Notes: generated by a model not told the origin, from the letters alone. Numbered from the stretch's first letter, positions 192 through 11,972 are shown. The stretch is DNA of 13,167 nt from a virus (IMGVR_UViG_3300021387_000118:1-13167), one strand, 5' to 3'. Made by a program: numbers and translations.

Positions 192-218
192 ATAGAGTTT
201 TTGGTTGGAGGAAAACCT

Positions 219-967: not shown

Positions 968-1491
968 AAGTTATAACTGCACCGGAGTATTATGAGCCAC
1001 ATGATAAAGATATTTCAGTGTTTCTGGCTGGTGGTATTACGAATTGTCCTGATTGGCAGTCACGGGTAATTAAAACTATAAAAGATGACTATAGTGTAAT
1101 TAGTGATTCACTTGTATTATTTAATCCACGTCGTGAAAATTTTCCAATTCATGATAAACTCGCGGCAATACAGCAAATATTATGGGAGTTTGATATGATT
1201 GAAAAGTGCAATATTTTTTCAATTTATTTTTCATCTGGGGATAGTGATCAGCCGATTTGTATGTATGAACTTGGACGCAATATTTTGAGAATGCAGATGA
1301 GATTCCCATCTGATTGGGAAGACAGAATTATTATCAGTGTCGAAGATGGCTATAGACGCAAACAGGATGTGTTAATTCAGACCGAATTGGCAACAAATAG
1401 TAAGATTTTTGTTAATACACAAGTTTCTAAAGACATAGGTATGGAGTATCACATTCAAAATATAATGAGAGCGTTTAAGAAATTCAGATAG
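964..1491 (+). CDS. nucleoside 2-deoxyribosyltransferase-like protein (PF05014/DUF4406-like Rossmann fold)
   Basis: N-terminal VFLAGGIT resembles the NDT IYFGAGWF motif. DSDQPICMYELGRN resembles the NDT catalytic-Glu motif (G.GMELGYA). GGAGG at 955-959 precedes ATG 964. The alternative start is ATG 952. Confidence 0.55.
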   Translation: MKVITAPEYYEPHDKDISVFLAGGITNCPDWQSRVIKTIKDDYSVISDSLVLFNPRRENFPIHDKLAAIQQILWEFDMIEKCNIFSIYFSSGDSDQPICMYELGRNILRMQMRFPSDWEDRIIISVEDGYRRKQDVLIQTELATNSKIFVNTQVSKDIGMEYHIQNIMRAFKKFR

Positions 1492-1527
1492 TGGATTATT
1501 AATGAGTTTTTGATAGGAGAGAATAAA

Positions 1528-1761
1528 ATGGATTTTTCGCTAGGTGGAATACCAATTTATAACGCAAGAAATATAGAGTGGAAATCAAATGGCGATGGTA
1601 CTGGGCAGCTCTGGTTTAATACTGTGGTTGCAGATAAAAACGGCAAAGAGCAAGATGTAAGATTTCATATATTCAGATTAAAGTTTGATGACCCGTTAAT
1701 ATCTATTGAATCAGTTGATAATAAATTATACGAGATTGAAACGGTAGATCATTCATTCTAA
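1528..1761 (+). CDS. hypothetical protein (77 aa)
   Basis: The conserved junction cassette TTTTGATAGGAGAG ends 8 nt before ATG 1528. The track ORF begins at an upstream TTG in the same frame. Confidence 0.6.
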   Translation: MDFSLGGIPIYNARNIEWKSNGDGTGQLWFNTVVADKNGKEQDVRFHIFRLKFDDPLISIESVDNKLYEIETVDHSF

Positions 1762-1787
1762 TAAAAAGATAATTTAATGGTAAATAA

Positions 1788-1985
1788 ATGATAGGTAAAT
1801 GTCTAAACAACTGTGATAATAAAACCAAAGATGGATATTGCAAAACTACTGGATGTATAAACTCTCAATACCGACAATATCTAACTACGGGTATCGAAGA
1901 TGGATGGATTAAAGTTGATAAACAAACATGGAGAGAGTATCAAATGATGAAAGATCCAGACTACGGAGTTGGAAAATTTAGTTAA
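1788..1985 (+). CDS. small Cys-rich hypothetical protein (65 aa; C..NC...C...C)
   Basis: It is a track ORF with only a weak RBS, but it fits the co-directional packing. Confidence 0.4.
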   Translation: MIGKCLNNCDNKTKDGYCKTTGCINSQYRQYLTTGIEDGWIKVDKQTWREYQMMKDPDYGVGKFS

Positions 1986-2147
1986 TAAATAACTTTTTAT
2001 GCCTGAGATGGTATGCGATTGAGGAAATGAACTCATGATTTAAAAACTAATCATTTAAGCGGTGGGTTAGGATTAGCTCCGAAAGGTAACCATGTCCAAG
2101 GATGAAGCAACTACCGCATAAGAAGACTATTTAATGAGGATCATTGA

Positions 2148-2360
2148 ATGCGTTTATATGAAATCGAAGCAGATTATCGACCGAAGAATCCAAAGAAGCC
2201 CAAATATTATGTCTGGGCAGACACGACTAAAGATGCAAAATTGGTTTTTAACAATATAATCAGTTGGCTTACGATTTATAATGTCGCTCCAATGAACAAA
2301 GAAGACTCTGATAAGATATGTAATGAACCAGATAAGTATATAATCATAGGAAAAAAGTAA
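2148..2360 (+). CDS. hypothetical basic protein (70 aa)
   Basis: GAGGA at 2134-2138 lies 9 nt before ATG 2148. The stop overlaps the start of the next gene (TAATG). Confidence 0.55.
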   Translation: MRLYEIEADYRPKNPKKPKYYVWADTTKDAKLVFNNIISWLTIYNVAPMNKEDSDKICNEPDKYIIIGKK

Positions 2361-2791
2361 TGTATAAACAAATAATCATAGTTCGTAAAGACTTAAATAT
2401 GGGCCACGGCAAGATGGCTGCGCAAGTTGCACATGCTTCAATGTCGTTCTTATCATGGTTTGTAAGAGATAATGCTGACCAAGATGGTCATATTGACGCT
2501 TGGTTTGACAAGGATATCTTAGATAACTGGCTGAATGGCATTTATACTAAGGTTGTGTTACAGGCCAAGAATAAGGGTCAACTAGAGAAAGCAATTATCC
2601 TAGCTAATGAAATAGGCTTGGTGGAGGGGAAAGATTATTTTTTAATCAAAGATAACTGCCTTACAGAGCTTGAGCCGGAAGAAGTTGATGAATATGGTGT
2701 TGGTAGAACATTGACTTGTATTGGATTTAAACCGATGGATTCCGAAGTAATAGACAAGGTTGCCAAGAAGTTTCATATTTATGTAGATTAA
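2360..2791 (+). CDS. pth2: peptidyl-tRNA hydrolase, PTH2 family
   Basis: IIIVRKDLNMGHGKMAAQVAHAS matches the PTH2 signature (VVRxDLxMGKGKxAAQCxHAA). The C-terminal GRTLTCIGFKP...IDKV matches PTH2 (QTVLGIGPGP..IDKV). The TAATG overlap links it to the upstream gene. Confidence 0.85.
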   Translation: MYKQIIIVRKDLNMGHGKMAAQVAHASMSFLSWFVRDNADQDGHIDAWFDKDILDNWLNGIYTKVVLQAKNKGQLEKAIILANEIGLVEGKDYFLIKDNCLTELEPEEVDEYGVGRTLTCIGFKPMDSEVIDKVAKKFHIYVD

Positions 2792-2835
2792 CCAATAAAT
2801 AAGAGTAATACAAGTTGTATTGAAGGATTGTGAGA

Positions 2836-3018
2836 ATGAACAATAAAATAATCTTAGACAATAAAGAAATGTTTGTCGCAGTACAAGAGTATTTATCTAA
2901 AAGAAATATTGAATTACCAGAAGATGTTTCTGTTACTATGAAACTAAAGAAAAGATTGCCAGGAGATCCATTTCCAGATGATTATATTCCGTATATAGAG
3001 GTTGAATATAATGTATGA
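2836..3018 (+). CDS. hypothetical protein (60 aa)
   Basis: AAGGA at 2822-2826 precedes ATG 2836. The track ORF starts at an upstream GTG in the same frame. Confidence 0.5.
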   Translation: MNNKIILDNKEMFVAVQEYLSKRNIELPEDVSVTMKLKKRLPGDPFPDDYIPYIEVEYNV

Positions 3019-3244
3019 ATATATAAATTGTCCCGTCTGCGGAACGCGCAATGAATATACTACTTATTCTGAATTGGGGTTCGGAATAATCGAGCGACAT
3101 TATCATTGTCCTAGATGTACATATTTCGTTGAACAAGCATATAGTCCAGTATGTGTCGGAATTAGTACAGACTGTCCAGAAGAATATCTTGAAAGAGCCA
3201 AAGAGTTGAAATTGGATTTTTATCAGCCGGATGAGATACCGTGA
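3011..3244 (+). CDS. zinc-ribbon protein (CPVCG ... CPRC), 77 aa
   Basis: GAGG at 2998-3001 lies 9 nt before ATG 3011. It carries two CxxC pairs. It overlaps the 3' end of the upstream gene by 8 nt. Confidence 0.6.
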   Translation: MYEYINCPVCGTRNEYTTYSELGFGIIERHYHCPRCTYFVEQAYSPVCVGISTDCPEEYLERAKELKLDFYQPDEIP

Positions 3245-3312
3245 AAGTATGTTGGGTGTAAATCCTAACTCACAGAAAATATTGGGAATGTATGGATTGA
3301 AAGAAGTGTTTT

Positions 3313-3564
3313 ATGAGTAAGAGAAGAAAAGGCCGATCAATTGACCATCATTGGCAATTTGTAAAATATAAAGGTGACGGAGCGTTCTATGCTAAATGCA
3401 GTTGCGGATTTCATTATGGATGTGATAAGCCAAAATACGAAAATTCTAGTATCCCAACAGTCCCATCACCTGAGAAGTTATATAACTACTGCCCACATTG
3501 TGGAGCGAGAAAAACAAGATATTATGATGAACCAATATATATTGATAAGTATTGGTTTGAGTAA
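3313..3564 (+). CDS. zinc-finger-like protein (CSCG ... CPHCG), 83 aa, basic N-terminus
   Basis: It is a track ORF with a weak SD. The overlapping frame at 3374..3568 is less gene-like. Confidence 0.5.
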   Translation: MSKRRKGRSIDHHWQFVKYKGDGAFYAKCSCGFHYGCDKPKYENSSIPTVPSPEKLYNYCPHCGARKTRYYDEPIYIDKYWFE

Positions 3565-3576
3565 ATGAGGATTGAT

Positions 3577-3774
3577 ATGAGTGTTGAAGGATTTTTGCTT
3601 AAAAGAAGAAGGTTTAGAACTACTCACAACATGTATCAACTAACTTGCGACGATGAACATTTTGATTTGGATATGGCGGTTAGCTTATTGGAAAATATTG
3701 GGAAAGTGGCAGAAGATGGTAAAGAGATGTGGACAATAGTTCCACCAGGATATAAATGGAGTGTTGTAAAATGA
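3577..3774 (+). CDS. hypothetical protein (65 aa; 69 aa if started at ATG 3565)
   Basis: GAGGA at 3567-3571 lies 5 nt before ATG 3577. The in-frame ATG 3565 abuts the upstream stop and is the alternative start. Confidence 0.5.
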   Translation: MSVEGFLLKRRRFRTTHNMYQLTCDDEHFDLDMAVSLLENIGKVAEDGKEMWTIVPPGYKWSVVK

Positions 3775-4145
3775 CAAGAGTAATAATTGCGGGGAGCAGA
3801 CAGTTTAATGATTATCATAAGATGTTAACAGAATTGGACAACCTTGGAATTCATTTTATCAATACCATAGATCCAATAGAGATTGTTAGTGGTCATGCTT
3901 CTGGTGCTGATGCTCTTGGCGAAAGATTTGCTAAAGAATATAATTATCCGCTCAAGACATTCCCCGCCGAATGGAATAAATACGGGAAAGCTGCCGGACC
4001 AATCCGCAATGAACAGATGGCTAAATATGCAGCAGAGGCTGATCGAGGGATTTTGATTGCGTTCCCAATTGGAGAGAGTAGGGGAACTAACAATATGATT
4101 AAACTAGCAAAACAGTATGGCCTAGAAGTAAACGTGGTGTATTGA
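3771..4145 (+). CDS. SLOG-superfamily (DprA/LOG-like; DUF2493-like) Rossmann protein
   Basis: VIIAGSRQF is a Rossmann beta1 strand. GHASGADALGERFA matches the GxARGxDxxA motif. AGPIRNEQM matches the GPxRNxxM motif. ATGA overlaps the upstream stop. The alternative start is ATG 3756 with AGGA at 3747-3750. Confidence 0.55.
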   Translation: MTRVIIAGSRQFNDYHKMLTELDNLGIHFINTIDPIEIVSGHASGADALGERFAKEYNYPLKTFPAEWNKYGKAAGPIRNEQMAKYAAEADRGILIAFPIGESRGTNNMIKLAKQYGLEVNVVY

Positions 4146-4166
4146 TTAAATACTTTTATACTACTA

Positions 4167-4195
4167 TTGACAACAAGTAGATAAAAAAGTATAAT
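4167..4195 (+). promoter_or_regulatory. perfect sigma-A/sigma-70 consensus promoter TTGACA-N17-TATAAT
   Basis: TTGACA sits at 4167-4172, the spacer is exactly 17 nt, and TATAAT sits at 4190-4195. It lies in the 79-nt gap before the gene at 4225. Confidence 0.75.
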
Positions 4196-4224
4196 CAATA
4201 TAAATTATTAAAAGGAGAAAACCA

Positions 4225-4584
4225 ATGGCTGGATTAGAAGAACTTAAAACTGTTTACAAAATGATTAAGAATTATTATGGATATAAATGTACAGATGTAA
4301 TTTTCCGCAAAGATGAAGATGACGAATTCTGTGAGTTAGTTTTTGAGTATCAGGGGTTCCCAGTAAAGACAATATTCTCTTATGGGTTTTGCACTAATGT
4401 GATATACCCTAATAATGATGAAGTAACTATCATTGGCAATGATGAAAAGAATGGGGCAGTTCTTTCGACCACGGTTTATTTCGCTATCTGCGATTTTATT
4501 AAGACTATTAATAAGAATAGATTCGATAATGAAGCTATAAATGCATTCATTGATTATCTGTGGGATGATGTTATAAATGTATAA
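4225..4584 (+). CDS. hypothetical protein (119 aa)
   Basis: AAAGGAG lies about 7 nt before ATG 4225. It is the first gene downstream of the consensus promoter. Confidence 0.65.
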   Translation: MAGLEELKTVYKMIKNYYGYKCTDVIFRKDEDDEFCELVFEYQGFPVKTIFSYGFCTNVIYPNNDEVTIIGNDEKNGAVLSTTVYFAICDFIKTINKNRFDNEAINAFIDYLWDDVINV

Positions 4585-4604
4585 TTAAATGAAGAGGAAT
4601 GAAT

Positions 4605-5099
4605 ATGCTATCTCAATCCAACATTGATAAACTTCATGTAAATGGTATTTATAAATGCGAACCCGTATTGAGTTGGTTACCATTCTATAAACGAGATAAT
4701 CCTTACTGGTGTCGCAACTGGACGTTTAAGGTTAAAGAATATAAAGGTCACTATGCTATGTATGATACTTACTGGTCAACAGGTGACGATTATCCAATAG
4801 AACTTACAGATGAGAATTTTGATAAATTTGAATATCTGTTTGATTTGGATGATATTCGGTATATACATGATTATGAAAGCTGGCTTGAATATCCAGAAGA
4901 AGATAGATGGAGAGTGCCACTAGATTCTGGCGGCACCAATCATGCAAAATATGTTGTTCGGCGTGGAGCCAAGAGGGTTAAGGAACGAGTTATCGAGAGA
5001 ATGCAGCGTGATATTGATTGCTTAAAGCATGAGTTATCTCAGAAAGGGCGGATCCTCGAAGGGATTATCAATGGTAGTATTGATTGGAATATATGCTGA
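4605..5099 (+). CDS. hypothetical protein (164 aa), Trp/Tyr-rich
   Basis: GAGG at 4594-4597 lies 7 nt before ATG 4605. ATG 4599 is too close to the SD. Confidence 0.6.
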   Translation: MLSQSNIDKLHVNGIYKCEPVLSWLPFYKRDNPYWCRNWTFKVKEYKGHYAMYDTYWSTGDDYPIELTDENFDKFEYLFDLDDIRYIHDYESWLEYPEEDRWRVPLDSGGTNHAKYVVRRGAKRVKERVIERMQRDIDCLKHELSQKGRILEGIINGSIDWNIC

Positions 5100-5162
5100 T
5101 GGAGAGTGTGATGTGGGATCCAGAAACTGATGCTTGCGATTATTGAAAGGAGAGGACAACTC

Positions 5163-5324
5163 ATGGATCAAGCACATATGATAAAAGACCTTGAAATTGC
5201 AAAATGCATACTGAGTAATTTAAACACCCCACTTGATGGGATGATGAGAGTCTGTATTGGGCAAATTATATCGGAAGCAATTGACGCATTAAAAATAGAG
5301 GAGAAACATAATGAGGATAATTAA
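5163..5324 (+). CDS. small hypothetical protein (53 aa)
   Basis: AAAGGAGAGG at 5146-5155 lies 7 nt before ATG 5163. The track ORF from 5130 lacks an RBS. Confidence 0.5.
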   Translation: MDQAHMIKDLEIAKCILSNLNTPLDGMMRVCIGQIISEAIDALKIEEKHNEDN

Positions 5325-5712
5325 TCGAAATGAATTAGCAAAGATGCCAAATGGCACGGTGTTCTCATCATTTGATGGTTATAGTGTTGACGGATTTGAA
5401 ATTATAACAGGCAGCCATGGTGATGGATTTAATGGTACGCTTGATCTGGAACCAAGTTTTAATTGGGATAGTGATCATGCGGAACGTATTACTAACTGGT
5501 CAACTGTAGATACCGCCGATTATGATTTTGATGAGGATGCCAAGTTCGTTGTTTATAGTAAGAATGAAATACGTGAAATAATTCAGTGGCTAAAATGGGC
5601 CATTGACGAAGACGGACATCCTGATATGGAAAAGTATTTTTATAAAAACCAAGTAATGTCGGAGGGGGAAGCTTCAAAATATACTAATGGTCATGGCTTA
5701 TGGTGGGGATAA
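5311..5712 (+). CDS. hypothetical protein (133 aa)
   Basis: GAGGAG at 5298-5303 lies 7 nt before ATG 5311. Confidence 0.65.
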   Translation: MRIINRNELAKMPNGTVFSSFDGYSVDGFEIITGSHGDGFNGTLDLEPSFNWDSDHAERITNWSTVDTADYDFDEDAKFVVYSKNEIREIIQWLKWAIDEDGHPDMEKYFYKNQVMSEGEASKYTNGHGLWWG

Positions 5713-5724
5713 AACAAGATTTCA

Positions 5725-5904
5725 ATGCCTAATTATGTAAGATGCATTCAGTTAGAACCTGGATTAAAATTATATTATAGTAATAAAGAACAATGTTTAA
5801 GAACATCGGAAGAATTAACAAATGCCGGATTTAAGAATCGTGTTGCATATAATTATGACGGTGATTTTTGGAGTATATATGTATTAGATGAAACAAGTCT
5901 TTGA
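5725..5904 (+). CDS. small hypothetical protein (59 aa), below the ORF-track cutoff
   Basis: It fills an otherwise empty gap. It ends ...DETSL with its stop inside the conserved junction cassette (AAGTCTTTGATAGGAG). The SD is weak. Confidence 0.4.
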   Translation: MPNYVRCIQLEPGLKLYYSNKEQCLRTSEELTNAGFKNRVAYNYDGDFWSIYVLDETSL

Positions 5905-5919
5905 TAGGAGAAAAAATAT

Positions 5920-6120
5920 ATGTACGATCCTGAAGAAATAAATAAAAATCCTTGGTGGTGGATAAGAAATAGAGGAAAAATTAATGATGCTCTTGAAGTA
6001 ATAGATCTTGCTTTAGAAGAATATGATGAGGGACGCGGGTTGGCATTTTCTGATATTCCAGATAAATTTAAAGATATCAAAAATTTCTTTAATGATGTTT
6101 GCTATCCTGATTGGAAGTGA
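5920..6120 (+). CDS. hypothetical Trp-rich protein (66 aa)
   Basis: The junction cassette TTTGATAGGAGAAAAAATAT precedes ATG 5920. Confidence 0.6.
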   Translation: MYDPEEINKNPWWWIRNRGKINDALEVIDLALEEYDEGRGLAFSDIPDKFKDIKNFFNDVCYPDWK

Positions 6121-6144
6121 AAATTAGATTTTATTGGAGAATTT

Positions 6145-6429
6145 ATGAAGAAGATTGATGAAGGAAATATGAGTGGACTTCGTGATTGGTGTGCTATGCA
6201 TGGTATAATATACGTGCAATGGTATCCATATGATAATTGTTCTGGTTATTACATAGAGAATCCATCAGAGGATGCATTGGAAAAATTCTATGAAAATGTT
6301 AATGCGTCTGATCCATATCATAGATCTTTTGTTTTAATATTGGGGAAGACTGAAACTCATAATAATTTGAACATGAGAACTATTGATGAATATATACAAC
6401 ATGGTATATTACCTTTTCTATTTTGTTGA
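6145..6429 (+). CDS. hypothetical protein (94 aa) carrying an LRDWC motif
   Basis: The cassette TTTTATTGGAGAATTT precedes ATG 6145. It contains a 17-nt exact repeat shared with the gene at 7415. Confidence 0.6.
   Translation: MKKIDEGNMSGLRDWCAMHGIIYVQWYPYDNCSGYYIENPSEDALEKFYENVNASDPYHRSFVLILGKTETHNNLNMRTIDEYIQHGILPFLFC
6177..6193 (+). repeat. 17-nt exact repeat ACTTCGTGATTGGTGTG (copy 1, inside the gene at 6145)
   Basis: The identical 17-mer recurs at 7558-7574 inside the gene at 7415. Both copies encode LRDWC. Confidence 0.8.
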
Positions 6430-6455
6430 AAAACTGAATTTGATTGGAGAAAAAT

Positions 6456-6791
6456 ATGAGTTATAACGAGAACGGTATTTGTAAATTCGCAATAGAACGA
6501 GAAGACGGTCATGGTGAGCAGCAACGTCATCCGTTACAGCTGGTGGCAAGAATAGATGTTGATGACCTGGTAAAGCTATTCGATGAAGCCCCGACAAATT
6601 TTGATGGCGAGAACCCCATTTGTAAAGTAAAAGATCCAATTAAATTTACGAAGTTTGTCATCAGGAGATTATGGGACGATGCACCATATGAAGCTGATGA
6701 TGTTGTTTGGGCACAGCCGTTGACTTATATCTTTGAACAATTACTAGAAGATTATAGGCCGGAGTTTCTGGAGTATTTTGATGAGGTATGA
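6456..6791 (+). CDS. hypothetical acidic protein (111 aa)
   Basis: The cassette TTTGATTGGAGAAAAAT precedes ATG 6456. The track ORF starts at an upstream TTG in the same frame. Confidence 0.6.
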   Translation: MSYNENGICKFAIEREDGHGEQQRHPLQLVARIDVDDLVKLFDEAPTNFDGENPICKVKDPIKFTKFVIRRLWDDAPYEADDVVWAQPLTYIFEQLLEDYRPEFLEYFDEV

Positions 6792-6821
6792 AATTGAGGT
6801 TTTATCGGAAAAGAGGTAAAA

Positions 6822-6989
6822 ATGTTTAAATTTGAAAAAATAGCCGAAATAAGGACTGTTAGCGGGAAAGTGACAAAAGAGGTTGTTGAAGCCCTCATAG
6901 ATAAAGGGTTTTATTTATGCCTTGACGGAAATTATGCAATGGATGGATGCGATTTTATTGTAATGAAAAAAGCATCTGATGAAAACTAA
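6822..6989 (+). CDS. small hypothetical protein (55 aa), below the ORF-track cutoff
   Basis: AAGAGG at 6811-6816 lies 5 nt before ATG 6822. It fills a 190-nt gap in the same orientation. Confidence 0.5.
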   Translation: MFKFEKIAEIRTVSGKVTKEVVEALIDKGFYLCLDGNYAMDGCDFIVMKKASDEN

Positions 6990-7017
6990 GTTTTATTGGA
7001 ATTTTGAAGTGATATTT

Positions 7018-7197
7018 ATGAAGAAAATACTAATAGTTAAAAATGGCAATACCCCAATGGGAATATTCGAGACAGAAAGAGTTGAAGAACACTGGAGTTG
7101 GGGAAAGCATTGGTTTGACTTTCAATTGAAAGATGGAAGTAGATCAGTAGATTATCAGATGCCTTTATGCCACTACTATATTTTGAAAAAGAAATAA
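7018..7197 (+). CDS. small hypothetical protein (59 aa)
   Basis: A cassette variant AAGTTTTATTGGAATTTTGAAGTGA precedes ATG 7018. The in-frame ATG 6979 is the alternative start, but it lies inside the upstream small ORF. Confidence 0.45.
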   Translation: MKKILIVKNGNTPMGIFETERVEEHWSWGKHWFDFQLKDGSRSVDYQMPLCHYYILKKK

Positions 7198-7214
7198 GTT
7201 TTATGGGAAGTAAT

Positions 7215-7394
7215 ATGGATATATATAAACTAATAGATTACTACATTGACAAATATTTAGAAGAAAAGGAACATCAAACAGATGGTTATACTCGTGCTGG
7301 GATGTTACAGGGATTATTATGGATTTGTCGCTTTGGTGGCGTAACAGATGAGAACCTTGGTGATGATAGATTAATAAAGATATCTAGCAAATGA
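7215..7394 (+). CDS. small hypothetical protein (59 aa)
   Basis: The cassette variant AAGTTTTATGGGAAG ends 5 nt before ATG 7215. The alternative start is ATG 7203. Confidence 0.5.
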   Translation: MDIYKLIDYYIDKYLEEKEHQTDGYTRAGMLQGLLWICRFGGVTDENLGDDRLIKISSK

Positions 7395-7414
7395 AATAAA
7401 CGCTTGGAGGCACT

Positions 7415-7594
7415 ATGACAAATTTTGAAAAATATATAAATAGCTTAACACAGGATAAGTTCATAGATTCGATGATACTAAACTGCGATGGTTGTCCAGC
7501 GTATCCATGTAATGATGAAAATATTACAGAAGACAATGGGCTTGATTGCGAAGAAAAACTTCGTGATTGGTGTGAAACTGAAAGAAGTCTTTGA
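7415..7594 (+). CDS. small Cys-rich protein (59 aa; CDGCPAYPC ... LRDWC), below the track cutoff
   Basis: GGAGG at 7406-7410 lies 4 nt before ATG 7415. Its stop sits inside the junction cassette. It shares the 17-nt repeat with the gene at 6145. It is preferred over the overlapping ORFs at 7384..7698 (-) and 7488..7796 (+). Confidence 0.55.
   Translation: MTNFEKYINSLTQDKFIDSMILNCDGCPAYPCNDENITEDNGLDCEEKLRDWCETERSL
7558..7574 (+). repeat. 17-nt exact repeat ACTTCGTGATTGGTGTG (copy 2, inside the gene at 7415)
   Basis: See copy 1. Confidence 0.8.
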
Positions 7595-7606
7595 TGAGGA
7601 AAAAAT

Positions 7607-7888
7607 ATGTATAGAGAGATGCCACCAGATGCAATGCAACCACATGATACTTGGATTATTGCCTTTTGCCCAGATACAGATTCGTTCTTTGTCACCAATC
7701 AGAGGGCATTCTACTGGGAATCCGAAGAAGAATTTGAATCAGAAGAAGCTGGAATATATTTCTTTGAGCATCAGATTCAATACTTCATTGATGTAGAAGA
7801 AAAATTAATGAGCGACATGTTTATTAATGATTGGAATACTGATCGTGTTTTTCTGGAGAACACAAATAGACGATATCTTAAAAGCTAA
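7607..7888 (+). CDS. hypothetical acidic protein (93 aa)
   Basis: The cassette AAGTCTTTGATGAGGAAAAAATAT precedes ATG 7607. Confidence 0.6.
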   Translation: MYREMPPDAMQPHDTWIIAFCPDTDSFFVTNQRAFYWESEEEFESEEAGIYFFEHQIQYFIDVEEKLMSDMFINDWNTDRVFLENTNRRYLKS

Positions 7889-7906
7889 GTTTAATTGGAG
7901 AATGTA

Positions 7907-8230
7907 ATGGTAGCAAGATGTGGGAATACTGGTGTTACTGTTGGCAGCGAATGGTGTGGATTATGCCGAGTGCATGGATGCGAAGGATATAAATTATTTA
8001 AACAATCATGTAAGAATGGCGAACAATTTAATGAAGGAGAAGCTATGGTAGAAATTAATGATGTGAATCTTAACAAAGAACTTATGTGTGAGATTAGAAT
8101 TCCTATAGGAGTTAATAGAGAGACAATTACAAATCCTTTTAAGATACTTGGATTTGATGTAAGACAAATTGGCAGCCTTTCTAATGGTGATATTATTTAT
8201 GAGGTGGTTGATAAACCTAAGGTGAGATAA
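7907..8230 (+). CDS. Cys-rich (C..C..C...C) hypothetical protein (107 aa)
   Basis: The cassette AAGTTTAATTGGAGAATGTA precedes ATG 7907. The track ORF starts at an upstream TTG in the same frame. Confidence 0.6.
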   Translation: MVARCGNTGVTVGSEWCGLCRVHGCEGYKLFKQSCKNGEQFNEGEAMVEINDVNLNKELMCEIRIPIGVNRETITNPFKILGFDVRQIGSLSNGDIIYEVVDKPKVR

Positions 8231-8656: not shown

Positions 8657-8923
8657 ATGAGATATTTTAAATGTGCAGCGATTAGATACAAGACAGGTGA
8701 AGACATCTGGACAGAAAGACGAGGCAAAAGACATCATGAAATTATTAAAGCAATTCATGATGCTGGAGAAACAGAGCAGTATAAGAAATGTCATGTGGAT
8801 GGATTTATAATCGGAGAAAGTTGGACCGCAGAATTTGTAGACCGAGAAACTGCTACAGAAATCGCCAAAGAAATGGGGATTAAAATGCGAGGTTGTGTTC
8901 TAACATCTGAAGATTTGTGGTAA
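8657..8923 (+). CDS. hypothetical protein (88 aa)
   Basis: GAAGGA at 8643-8648 lies 8 nt before ATG 8657. Confidence 0.6.
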   Translation: MRYFKCAAIRYKTGEDIWTERRGKRHHEIIKAIHDAGETEQYKKCHVDGFIIGESWTAEFVDRETATEIAKEMGIKMRGCVLTSEDLW

Positions 8924-9446: not shown

Positions 9447-9755
9447 ATGTTATTAGATATTATAACTTCGACAAAGATTGGCATTTTTTATTTAGATAAA
9501 GGTTGGAAAGACGATGTTTATGAGAAAATTAGAGCCGATGCTTTAAAGTGTGAGACTCTTAAGTATTTCAATAAAAATGAAATATGCTTTGCTGACAAGC
9601 ATATAAAGATATGTATTTATTTTTATCCGGTAGATAATAATGTTAGAGGATGCAGATTTGATCGAGTTTATTATCAGCAGGGCATAGATAGAGATGTTTT
9701 ATTAAGTCGAGCTGCACCAAAGATATTAACAAGGATGTATCCGCTAGATGTTTAA
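9447..9755 (+). CDS. hypothetical protein (102 aa)
   Basis: GAGGAA at 9433-9438 lies 8 nt before ATG 9447. Confidence 0.55.
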   Translation: MLLDIITSTKIGIFYLDKGWKDDVYEKIRADALKCETLKYFNKNEICFADKHIKICIYFYPVDNNVRGCRFDRVYYQQGIDRDVLLSRAAPKILTRMYPLDV

Positions 9756-9768
9756 TAGGAGGAAAATA

Positions 9769-9984: not shown

Positions 9985-10644
9985 ATGAGTAATTATGTAA
10001 TTCACGCTTGCCCTAAGAGATTGTGGTATGTAGAAGAATTTCTCGTACCATCACTCAAAGAACAGGGCATAGAGAATATTGACGTAAGATGTGACAACTT
10101 TAAGCGTGGTAATCTTTTGTATTGTATGGATATCTTTGGAAGAATGACCGGAGATGGTGGCAGTTGGCACATACAGGACGATGTGGTTATTTGCCGAGAT
10201 TTCGCTCAACGTACTGCTAAGTATGATGGCAAGAATGAAATAGTGTGTGGCTTTGCTTGGGATAAAGATCCTAACATAGACAAAATCGACCATGTGCAGC
10301 AATCTGATATGTGGTACTCATTTCCTTGTATATATATCCCTAACTACATTGCCAAGGAATGTTCTGAATGGTTTTTCAATAAAGGACGATATGATGGAAG
10401 ATATTTATCATTTAGCGTTAAAGGCCAGTTCGATGATTATTTCTTCCAGAAGTATCTGATGGAGTATTATCCAGAACTTCCCGTTCTACATATTAAGCCG
10501 AGTCTTGTTGATCATATTGATTACCTAATTGGTGGAACAACAGTGGAAGCTATTGGCAGAGACGAGGTTAGTAGAGCAAAGTGGTTTGATGATCCTGATC
10601 TTGTTAATCAATTAAAGGAGAGGTTAAAATACAGAAATGGCTAA
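9985..10644 (+). CDS. first copy of a tandem paralog pair: GT-A-fold/DxD-like putative glycosyltransferase (219 aa)
   Basis: GGAG at 9974-9977 lies 7 nt before ATG 9985. DGGSWHIQDDVVI resembles the GT-A (h)GG(v)Y(l)DxDhh motif. The C-terminal LVDHIDYLIGG has an H-x-D pair. It is clearly paralogous to the ORF at 10637..11302. Confidence 0.6.
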   Translation: MSNYVIHACPKRLWYVEEFLVPSLKEQGIENIDVRCDNFKRGNLLYCMDIFGRMTGDGGSWHIQDDVVICRDFAQRTAKYDGKNEIVCGFAWDKDPNIDKIDHVQQSDMWYSFPCIYIPNYIAKECSEWFFNKGRYDGRYLSFSVKGQFDDYFFQKYLMEYYPELPVLHIKPSLVDHIDYLIGGTTVEAIGRDEVSRAKWFDDPDLVNQLKERLKYRNG

Positions 10645-11302
10645 TTATTTAATTCATGCTTGTCCAGAACGAATGTGGTATGTGGATAATTATCTGGTGC
10701 CATCACTTCGTAATCAGGGTATTAATAATATTATTGTCAGTTGTGATCAGTTACATTTGGGGAATCTAGAAAGTTGTATGAAGATTTTCGGTTCTCTGGA
10801 AGACGATGGTTATGGTACATGGCATCTGCAAGATGATGTGATTATATGCCGGAACTTTCGGGAAATTACCGAGAGATATGATTATGGTGTTGTTTGCGGT
10901 TTCACTCATTCACGATCTGCTAACACTGGATTTGTTTTACCGGATAAGATGTGGTACTCATTTCCATGTATTAGAATATCTAACGGGATAGCCAAAGAAT
11001 GTTCACAGTGGTACTATTCGTTCGCTAAGAAATATGCTAAATATTATGAATGGGTTCATATGGGGAAATGTGATGATAATTTCTTCTATGAATTCATGAA
11101 TAAGTATTGTTCTACATTAGATGTATTAAATCTAGTTCCTAATTTGGTTGATCATATTGATTACCTTCTGGGAGGATCAATGGTTAACCAATACAGGAAT
11201 GGCGAACAATTTAGATCAGCTTACTTTGAGGATGTTGATCTTGTAGATCAATTAGCTAATGATATAAGGAGAAATAATAATGGTACGAATGCTTCATTAT
11301 GA
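10637..11302 (+). CDS. second copy of the tandem paralog pair: GT-A-fold/DxD-like putative glycosyltransferase (221 aa)
   Basis: It shares with the upstream ORF the blocks YxIHACPxRxWYV..LVPSL, WHxQDDVxICRxF, MWYSFPCI, IAKECSxW and LVDHIDYLxGG. It overlaps the upstream stop by 8 nt. AAGGAGAGG lies upstream. Confidence 0.6.
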   Translation: MANYLIHACPERMWYVDNYLVPSLRNQGINNIIVSCDQLHLGNLESCMKIFGSLEDDGYGTWHLQDDVIICRNFREITERYDYGVVCGFTHSRSANTGFVLPDKMWYSFPCIRISNGIAKECSQWYYSFAKKYAKYYEWVHMGKCDDNFFYEFMNKYCSTLDVLNLVPNLVDHIDYLLGGSMVNQYRNGEQFRSAYFEDVDLVDQLANDIRRNNNGTNASL

Positions 11303-11943: not shown

Positions 11944-11972
11944 TTGTCATTCTAGTATGTGAGTAGTATAAT
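11944..11972 (+). promoter_or_regulatory. near-consensus sigma-A promoter TTGTCA-N17-TATAAT
   Basis: TTGTCA sits at 11944-11949, the spacer is 17 nt, and TATAAT sits at 11967-11972. It lies in the 98-nt gap upstream of the HPr-like gene. Confidence 0.7.

Follow-up and report, generated by a model that had tools for sequence, protein, structure and literature searches.

It has long been asked how phages acquire their many small genes of unknown function and how they reshuffle them. To our knowledge, the promoter-early stem-loop (PeSL) cassette of T4-type phages is the only well-documented dedicated vehicle for such shuffling. The question arises again in IMGVR_UViG_3300021387_000118:1-13167, a phage sequence of 13,167 nt (the whole stretch, hereafter the window) whose G+C content is 35% and whose ~40 small genes all lie on the + strand: what is the role of one short sequence element that recurs at its gene junctions? 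An earlier note, made from the sequence of the window, had described a repeated cassette before eight start codons and proposed either the binding site of a phage translational regulator or a recombination linker. Here we describe a clade-specific junction cassette of ~24 nt which, on balance, we take to be a termination and re-initiation signal that doubles as a crossover point for gene cassettes. The behaviour known from PeSLs, a repeated junction between ORFans at which genes are exchanged, would thus appear to recur in an unrelated, uncultured clade of gut phages.

Form and occurrence of the junction element

When its copies are aligned on GGA, the element has the consensus TGAAAAnTAAG-TTTNAT-N-GGAGAA (form TGAAAAnTAAGTTTNATNGGAGAA) and an invariant core, TTT-N-AT-N-GGA(G). 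Read 5' to 3', an A-rich run with one or two stop codons is followed by TTTNAT, a single free base and GGAG(AA), and then by the ATG of the next gene. All eight junctions of the earlier note (before ATGs 1528, 5920, 6145, 6456, 7018, 7215, 7607 and 7907) were found, together with two clear copies (ATG 6822 and ATG 9769) and one degenerate copy (ATG 219) that it had missed (Table 1). Its consensus, AAGTyTTwATwGGAGAA, did not survive as written, because the subfamilies are out of register by one base; searched for literally, with two mismatches allowed, it returned four sites, two of them irrelevant, and it was replaced by a regular expression for the core and a profile. Subfamily A comprises the copies at 5920 and 7607, subfamily B those at 1528 and at one site 145 nt upstream of the window, and subfamily C those at 6145, 6456, 6822, 7018, 7215 and 7907. 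A de novo repeat search recovered these families as well (D3, D6, D9, D15 and D17). Of nine consecutive junctions between 5904 and 7907, only that of ATG 7415 is without the element.

Between GGAGAA and ATG there are 3-14 nt, where the earlier note gave 4-9 nt, and in most copies GGAG stands 3-9 nt from the ATG. GGAG stands at Shine-Dalgarno (SD) distance in 6 of the 10 window copies, and the other four (6822, 7018, 7215 and 7607) have GGAA. The upstream stop codon was correctly placed within the cassette in most junctions: three copies use the leading TGA, three a central TAA and three the TGA or TAA within TTTGAT/TTTAAT, and in one the stop lies upstream of the element. Since the stop falls at varying positions of the motif, the element is not merely the tail of a coding sequence.

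Some likeness between junctions is to be expected, as an obligatory stop codon and SD at 35% G+C will force it, and the copies are clustered along consecutive genes. On the most sceptical reading nothing special is present, only a chance resemblance of AT-rich ribosome-binding regions or the leftovers of tandem duplications of a gene with its ribosome site. The pattern TTTNATNGGA occurs nine times on the + strand, in all nine cases directly 5' of the start of an open reading frame (ORF), and once on the - strand, while 1000 dinucleotide shuffles averaged 0.89 occurrences and never exceeded 5. This ten-fold excess is well beyond what composition gives; the earlier note had named an enrichment no greater than that expected from AT-rich composition as an outcome that would undo its claim. 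The 14 nt 5' of the core are also significantly alike, with 5.57 of 14 positions shared among copies compared with 3.98 +/- 0.17 in control SD flanks (2000 resamples, maximum 4.62). A profile trained on the ten window copies (nhmmer, threshold >=8 bits) gave 21 matches, all at junctions and on the gene strand, in this phage and in relatives; 11 of them are in relatives' contigs outside the training set. On both strands of 676 kb of control DNA with similar composition (41 phage contigs related by their ribonucleotide reductase, RNR), the profile had no match. The ten genes flanked by the cluster matched no Pfam or PHROG family and have no detectable similarity to one another, so the repeat is not a by-product of recent tandem gene duplication; moreover, the motif recurs in relatives beside other genes. 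The reading as chance or duplication is already refuted at the level of these tests, and we give it next to no credence.

Nor does the element represent the usual surroundings of ribosome sites in this phage or its host. The region studied around the window (32.5 kb, hereafter the 32-kb region) was assembled from the source contig NODE_139, and the element is present at ~14 of its ~85 junctions, far from the placement before essentially all genes that would also have spoken against the earlier note. Averaged across ~75 genes of the region, there is no conservation 5' of GGA, which marks the element as belonging to a subset of genes. Its core is matched 0-2 times per 20 kb in RNR-related phages of similar G+C. 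The stretches of the 32-kb region with genes for ligase, thymidylate synthase, RNR, dUTPase and integrase yielded no copies, and neither did ~11 kb of late genes of a 98%-identical relative, L065. The earlier observation is confirmed, and the element reaches further 5' than had been noted, over ~24 nt.

The junction RNAs are predicted to form neither a stable nor a shared fold (minimum free energies of -0.7 to -5.9 kcal/mol, z ~0). An AAAAC/GTTTT hairpin with one compensatory change (6145 vs 7018) was considered and rejected, as it fails in the other copies. No Rfam family or tRNA was found, and no terminator-like sites lie within the copies.

Table 1. Copies of the junction element and sigma-70-type promoters in the window
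Feature	Sequence	Position	Strand	Remarks
Degenerate copy before g2	ATAGAGTTTTTGGTTGGAGGAA, then ATG 219	192-218	+	g2 homologs in L005, L057 and L061 have clearer copies
g5/g6 junction, subfamily B	ATTAATGAGTTTTTGATAGGAGAG, then ATG 1528	1498-1527	+	g5 stop TAG 1489-1491 upstream, in frame
g19/g20 junction, subfamily A	TGAAACAAGTCTTTGATAGGAGAA	5889-5919	+	g19 stop is TGA within TTTGAT; D15; 13.6 bits
g20/g21 junction, subfamily C	TGAAAATTAGATTTTATTGGAGAA	6118-6144	+	g20 stop is leading TGA; D3, D6, D17
g21/g22 junction	TGAAAAACTGAATTTGATTGGAGAA	6427-6455	+	g21 stop is leading TGA; D3
g22/g23 junction	TGAAATTGAGGTTTTATCGGAAAA, then separate SD (AGAGGT)	6789-6821	+	D6; 12.1 bits
g23/g24 junction	TGAAAACTAAGTTTTATTGGAA	6980-7017	+	14-nt spacer to ATG 7018; g23 stop is internal TAA; D6, D9
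g24/g25 junction	AAGAAATAAGTTTTATGGGAAG	7188-7214	+	g24 stop is internal TAA; D9
g26/g27 junction, subfamily A with 1-nt insertion	TGAAAGAAGTCTTTGATGAGGAAAA	7579-7606	+	D15
g27/g28 junction	TTAAAAGCTAAGTTTAATTGGAGAA	7878-7906	+	g27 stop is internal TAA; D3, D9, D17
g33/g34 junction, core only	TAGATGTTTAATAGGAGGAAAATA	9745-9768	+	
Sigma-70-type promoter, consensus	TTGACA, 17 nt, TATAAT	4167-4195	+	12/12 matches
Second sigma-70-type promoter		11944-11972		11/12 matches

Gene exchange at junctions among relatives

In order to compare the junctions between phages, relatives (L053-L064, taken from contigs of up to 206 kb) were reached via homologs of g22 (6456-6791) in ENA, Logan and IMG/VR. What they have in common with the window is single genes, at 70-97% DNA identity and in completely different order, and motif copies are common at their junctions as well. 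Several of these single-gene blocks of homology start (6437-6443 and 6800) or end (1522, 6801-6805 and 7901, all in window coordinates) within junctions. Conserved junctions between non-homologous genes, which the earlier note had suggested looking for in related phages, were found: junction variants that match at 20-23 of 25 positions have non-homologous genes on either side. The variant TGAAATTGAGGTTTTATCGGA occurs at window 6789, L059 3938 (23/25 identical), L060 10567 and L062 10543 with unrelated flanks, and AAATTAGATTTNATTGGAG occurs at window 6120, L060 9422 and L064 9974 with different flanking genes. Idiosyncratic bases shared in this way indicate common descent of the copies, rather than convergence.

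The two halves of the element can be followed separately. The right half of the g22 junction (TTTNATNGGAG and spacer) is kept in seven relatives, where it is joined to at least six different left halves that vary with the upstream gene. Conversely, the left half that follows g27 is kept in L060 and L062, and its right half varies with three different downstream genes; a g33-like downstream gene has different left halves in L059 and L060. As the left half follows the upstream gene and the right half the downstream gene, crossovers map inside the element. The element itself comes and goes: g5 and g26 are not preceded by it in the window and have a copy in L005 and L064, and g6 and g24 have it in the window and a degenerate copy or none elsewhere. 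The junction subfamily of a given gene was also seen to differ from one genome to another.

Gene g5 has three alternative downstream genes, which are g6 in the window, a g2 homolog in L005 and a third gene in scaffold 342 of assembly SHIW14-1. The left half of the g5/g6 junction recurs in L005 before the different gene. In scaffold 342, divergence begins at the g5 stop codon, and the assembly breaks exactly there. The phage is split in SHIW14-1 into scaffolds 342 and 391, which overlap across the end of g5 (window 1345-1545; the end of L004 and the start of L002), and scaffold 342 has five single-nucleotide polymorphisms (SNPs) clustered within the final 90 nt of g5 before a different junction and gene. 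This arrangement indicates that the SHIW14-1 sample series holds co-existing recombinant variants.

In L064 (9955-9997), an A-type copy is followed immediately by a C-type copy, without an intervening gene, and the g22 homolog comes next; such a double copy would be the expected residue of a cassette deletion or an empty insertion site. The g26/g27 junction is found in L062 both behind a g18 homolog and behind 35 nt left over from g26. An exact 16-nt repeat, CTTCGTGATTGGTGTG, which encodes LRDWC, was also observed in the otherwise unrelated g21 and g26 (6178-6193 and 7559-7574). Homology between L062 and the window begins exactly at this 16-mer (L062 10921), so that of g26 only those 35 nt precede the junction and g27. 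The 16-mer is an apparent second crossover point, this one inside coding sequence.

The reordered single genes, the variants between non-homologous genes, the exchanged junction halves and the alternative neighbors of g5 support the recombination linker of the earlier note. The contigs compared show a mosaic pattern at the element, from which we infer recombination as the mechanism. In the reading that we prefer, the element would have two roles. In mRNA, it would end the upstream ORF and offer an open, A/U-rich leader with GGAG for initiation or re-initiation of the next ORF, as suggested by its position, its SD spacing and its lack of structure. In DNA, short-homology recombination would swap, insert or delete single-gene cassettes at co-directional copies. 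Many such near-identical copies, 200-350 bp apart between unrelated genes, would be sites of cassette exchange, and phage recombinases act on short, diverged homology.

Several points weigh against this reading. The repeat is short (~24 nt) and its copies are only 70-90% alike, at the low end for homologous recombination. Genes at motif-free junctions (g9, g12 and g18) are likewise shuffled between relatives, so mosaicism can arise without the motif, and breakpoints near junctions would be expected from selection for gene integrity by itself. The comparison draws on 32 kb of the source contig, itself part of a genome of at least 142 kb, and on relatives' sequences in pieces of 5-20 kb. Finally, TTT, AT and GGAG are fixed and two positions are free, even among orthologous g22 junctions; this pattern points to sequence-specific selection, which microhomology alone does not explain. 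The motif is also kept at ATG 6822, where a separate SD follows it, and it persists without GGAG in two relatives' copies (L060 before the g24 homolog and L064 before the g26 homolog). Together with the fixed positions, this persistence without an SD role suggests sequence-specific recognition by the ribosome or a trans-acting factor.

These observations lend themselves to a rival reading, in which the element is an mRNA operator for a post-transcriptional regulator of the phage, either a RegA-like translational repressor or a RegB-like endonuclease that cuts at GGAG. A subset of early ORFan messages would then be jointly switched off or processed, and shuffling would be a by-product of site conservation. 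Such an operator would account for the conservation of particular positions in TTT-N-AT-N-GGAG while free positions vary at orthologous g22 junctions, for an identity beyond the SD, for the strict co-direction with genes, and for the limitation to a gene subset in an early-type operon, with no copies in the sampled late genes. RegA sites are loosely conserved AU-rich stretches covering the spacer and AUG, and RegB cuts within GGAG SD sequences and needs little beyond GGAG. Like these, the element is a signal in the translation-initiation regions of some early genes; unlike them, it is an ordered stretch whose conservation extends ~18 nt 5' of GGAG and includes it, and neither its spacer nor the first codons are conserved. 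No RegA (Pfam Translat_reg) or RegB family is among the on-record Pfam matches for the 32-kb region of this genome of at least 142 kb. The idiosyncratic variants shared between unrelated genes speak for common descent, although they are compatible with a binding site. We regard an operator as possible, yet clearly less probable than a linker that doubles as a translation signal.

Alternatively, the element may act as a dedicated, minimal site for cassette exchange that doubles as a ribosome-binding region, with TTTNATNGGAG recognized by a phage recombination function or by a sequence-specific RNA- or DNA-binding protein. We hold this to be improbable. If true, a clade of TAG-recoding gut phages would have an integron-like means for the capture, reordering and co-regulation of ORFan genes. 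The pattern of fixed and free positions predicts sequence-specific recognition, a prediction that is testable. Should the preferred reading, a translation signal serving as crossover point, be confirmed, nothing more than such a signal would be needed for a portable linker. The element would then provide a sequence handle for delimiting accessory-gene cassettes in metagenomic phage genomes, for tracking cassette turnover in one person's gut over time and for searching for a cognate regulator.

Transcription, TAG codons and surrounding genes

The two sigma-70-type promoters (Table 1) occupy the two largest intergenic gaps and probably define early transcription units. No terminator-like sites were found between them (4167 to ~11.9 kb), and on this basis the motif-rich genes appear to be transcribed as a single long early operon from a host-type promoter. 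In a scan of the copies themselves, only 9-of-12 promoter matches overlapping two copies were obtained, no more than in shuffles.

It is conceivable that the element acts instead as a promoter, read by an RNA polymerase or sigma factor specific to the phage; transcripts would begin at GGAG, one of the middle class for each ORFan. In this it would resemble T7-type promoters, which end in GGGAGA. The element extends ~18 nt 5' of GGAG, is strand-specific and lies in intergenic positions before individual small genes, and PeSLs demonstrate that ORFans of such regions can have promoters of their own (PMC2839356). It is, however, far more degenerate than the promoters of single-subunit polymerases, and its copies contain no sigma-70-like signal above chance. 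Furthermore, GGAG is at SD distance, so the SD would fall at the extreme 5' end of the transcript, and the sequences examined show no phage RNA polymerase. We rate such a promoter as very unlikely.

A DNA site resembling the stoperators of cluster A mycobacteriophages was also weighed. Stoperators are near-identical 13-mers that occur genome-wide on DNA, late operons included, and are bound by the immunity repressor (PMC9283540). By analogy, a phage repressor would block elongating RNA polymerase and so keep the ORFan array silent during lysogeny; the phage encodes a tyrosine recombinase and may therefore be temperate. Stoperators and the element are both asymmetric, placed in short intergenic spaces, numerous in a genome and oriented with transcription (21 of 21 profile matches are on the gene strand; PMC9283540). 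In contrast to stoperators, copies of the element are degenerate, are clustered locally in one ORFan array and overlap translation signals, with none in the sampled late genes (L065) or enzyme-gene parts. The SD and stop codons within the element fit a role at the RNA level better, and a repressor was not identified. A stoperator-like site is thus quite unlikely, though slightly less so than a phage-polymerase promoter, and both rank as less likely than an mRNA operator.

Stop codon usage was noted in parallel, as the phage appears to read TAG as a sense codon in late genes. The loci that bear on this recoding are L008 19084-20426 and 18299-19069 (- strand), L065 1-11341 and L058 6155-6483. 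A lysin-like gene (amidase/glucosaminidase/SPOR) has six in-frame TAGs and ends with TAA, late ORFs of L065 have up to 12 in-frame TAGs, and the L058 homolog of g22 has TAG where the window has CAG (Gln). Gene calls on NODE_139 end in TAA (37) or TGA (35) and never in TAG. Only two genes of the early region are terminated by TAG, namely g5 (stop and junction at 1489-1527) and a 48-aa ORF upstream (corresponding stretch at 9626-9655 of the 32-kb region, 145 nt upstream of the window). Both are in frame with the next gene across a subfamily B junction, and TAG read-through there would yield fusions of 265 and 163 aa, as called on NODE_139. The arrangement is not conserved, with g5 ending in TAG-TGA in L005 and in TGA in L004, and it may be a coincidence.

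The window corresponds at 100% identity to positions 41,512-54,678 of a human-gut metagenome contig, ENA ERZ12302816 NODE_139 (142,374 bp), and ends at its 3' side with a class II RNR gene. Near-identical pieces are also present in other assemblies (99.7-100% identity); SNP depletion was compared among them and is uninformative at such identity. Megablast of the window against cultured phages gave no match at the DNA level, an exact 38-mer search of IMG/VR had no match, and the best RNR identity to any isolate phage was 35%. A search of bacterial genomes for the host returned only contig L069 (CAZCZD010000002.1, 54 kb), from a metagenome-assembled genome of 'Candidatus Saccharibacteria'; long stretches of this contig match, at 87-98% identity, the IMG/VR phage contig from which L063 was taken. 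L069 is probably a mis-binned phage contig; the alternative is that it hints at the host.

On-record Pfam matches in the window include nucleoside 2-deoxyribosyltransferase-like (964-1491), archaeal/eukaryotic-type peptidyl-tRNA hydrolase (PTH2; 2360-2791), YAcAr-domain (3771-4145) and T4_Y16D-family (8657-8923) proteins. Tandem paralogous genes of ~220 aa each, 47% identical, overlap by 8 nt at 9985-10644 and 10637-11302; tblastn of the 219-aa protein from this pair found no homolog in cultured phages. A 162-nt segment (1986-2147) contains no plausible ORF, tRNA or Rfam match, and its predicted fold is not above shuffles (z -0.85).

Comparison with known systems

Integron attC sites, which are imperfect inverted repeats of 57-141 bp with core sites RYYYAAC ... 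GTTRRRY, were rejected as a model for the element. It has no inverted repeat or structure, and its GTTTTAT and GTTTGAT do not fit GTTRRRY. An IntI-type integrase was rejected as well. The only tyrosine recombinase seen (L008 16734-17930) has weak, generic Xer-type matches far below cut-offs, and none of the integron-integrase models reached its cut-off against it.

As a putative translation signal, the element may resemble the 'epsilon' enhancer upstream of the SD in the T7 gene 10 leader, TTAACTTTAAGAAGGAGA. The likeness lies in a block rich in U and A (TAAnTTTAA), placed a short way 5' of GGAG, as in CTAAGTTTAATTGGAGAA at 7881-7898. Epsilon, for its part, belongs to a single leader of a different phage.

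As a proposed site of exchange, the element invites comparison with the modular theory of phage genomes, which is reportedly due to Susskind and Botstein. Conserved gene-boundary ('linker') sequences have been proposed as targets of homologous recombination in mosaic phage genomes (PMC3974807). Linkers and the element have in common that they are short conserved boundary sequences with non-homologous flanking genes and are proposed crossover points. Linkers are rare in classic comparisons of lambdoid phages and mycobacteriophages, in which most junctions look illegitimate, whereas here ~14 junctions in 32 kb have the element, and it is clade-wide.

The closest comparison is with the PeSL cassettes of T4-type phages (Arbiol et al. 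2010, PMC2839356; Comeau et al. 2014, PMC4122927). PeSLs are longer than ~24 nt and carry a strong sigma-70-like early promoter (-35/-10, preceded by AT-rich sequence) and a stable stem-loop that serves as terminator or attenuator; neither signal was found in the element. Neighbouring PeSL copies recombine to give mini-circles. PeSL genes each have their own promoter, whereas the genes here share a single upstream promoter, and the phage is an uncultured, TAG-recoding gut phage rather than a T4-type myovirus. A PeSL begins with the upstream stop codon in an AT-rich stretch and ends with the downstream SD and start codon (PMC2839356), and the element before these ORFans is bounded in the same way. 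As it is without the defining promoter or stem-loop, we regard the element as an analogue, not a member, of the PeSLs, similar in function and pared down to a translation signal. With them it shares its nature as a repeated intergenic cassette concentrated in ORFan-rich, hyperplastic regions, where it marks the breakpoints of insertions, deletions and replacements at which related phages exchange unrelated genes.

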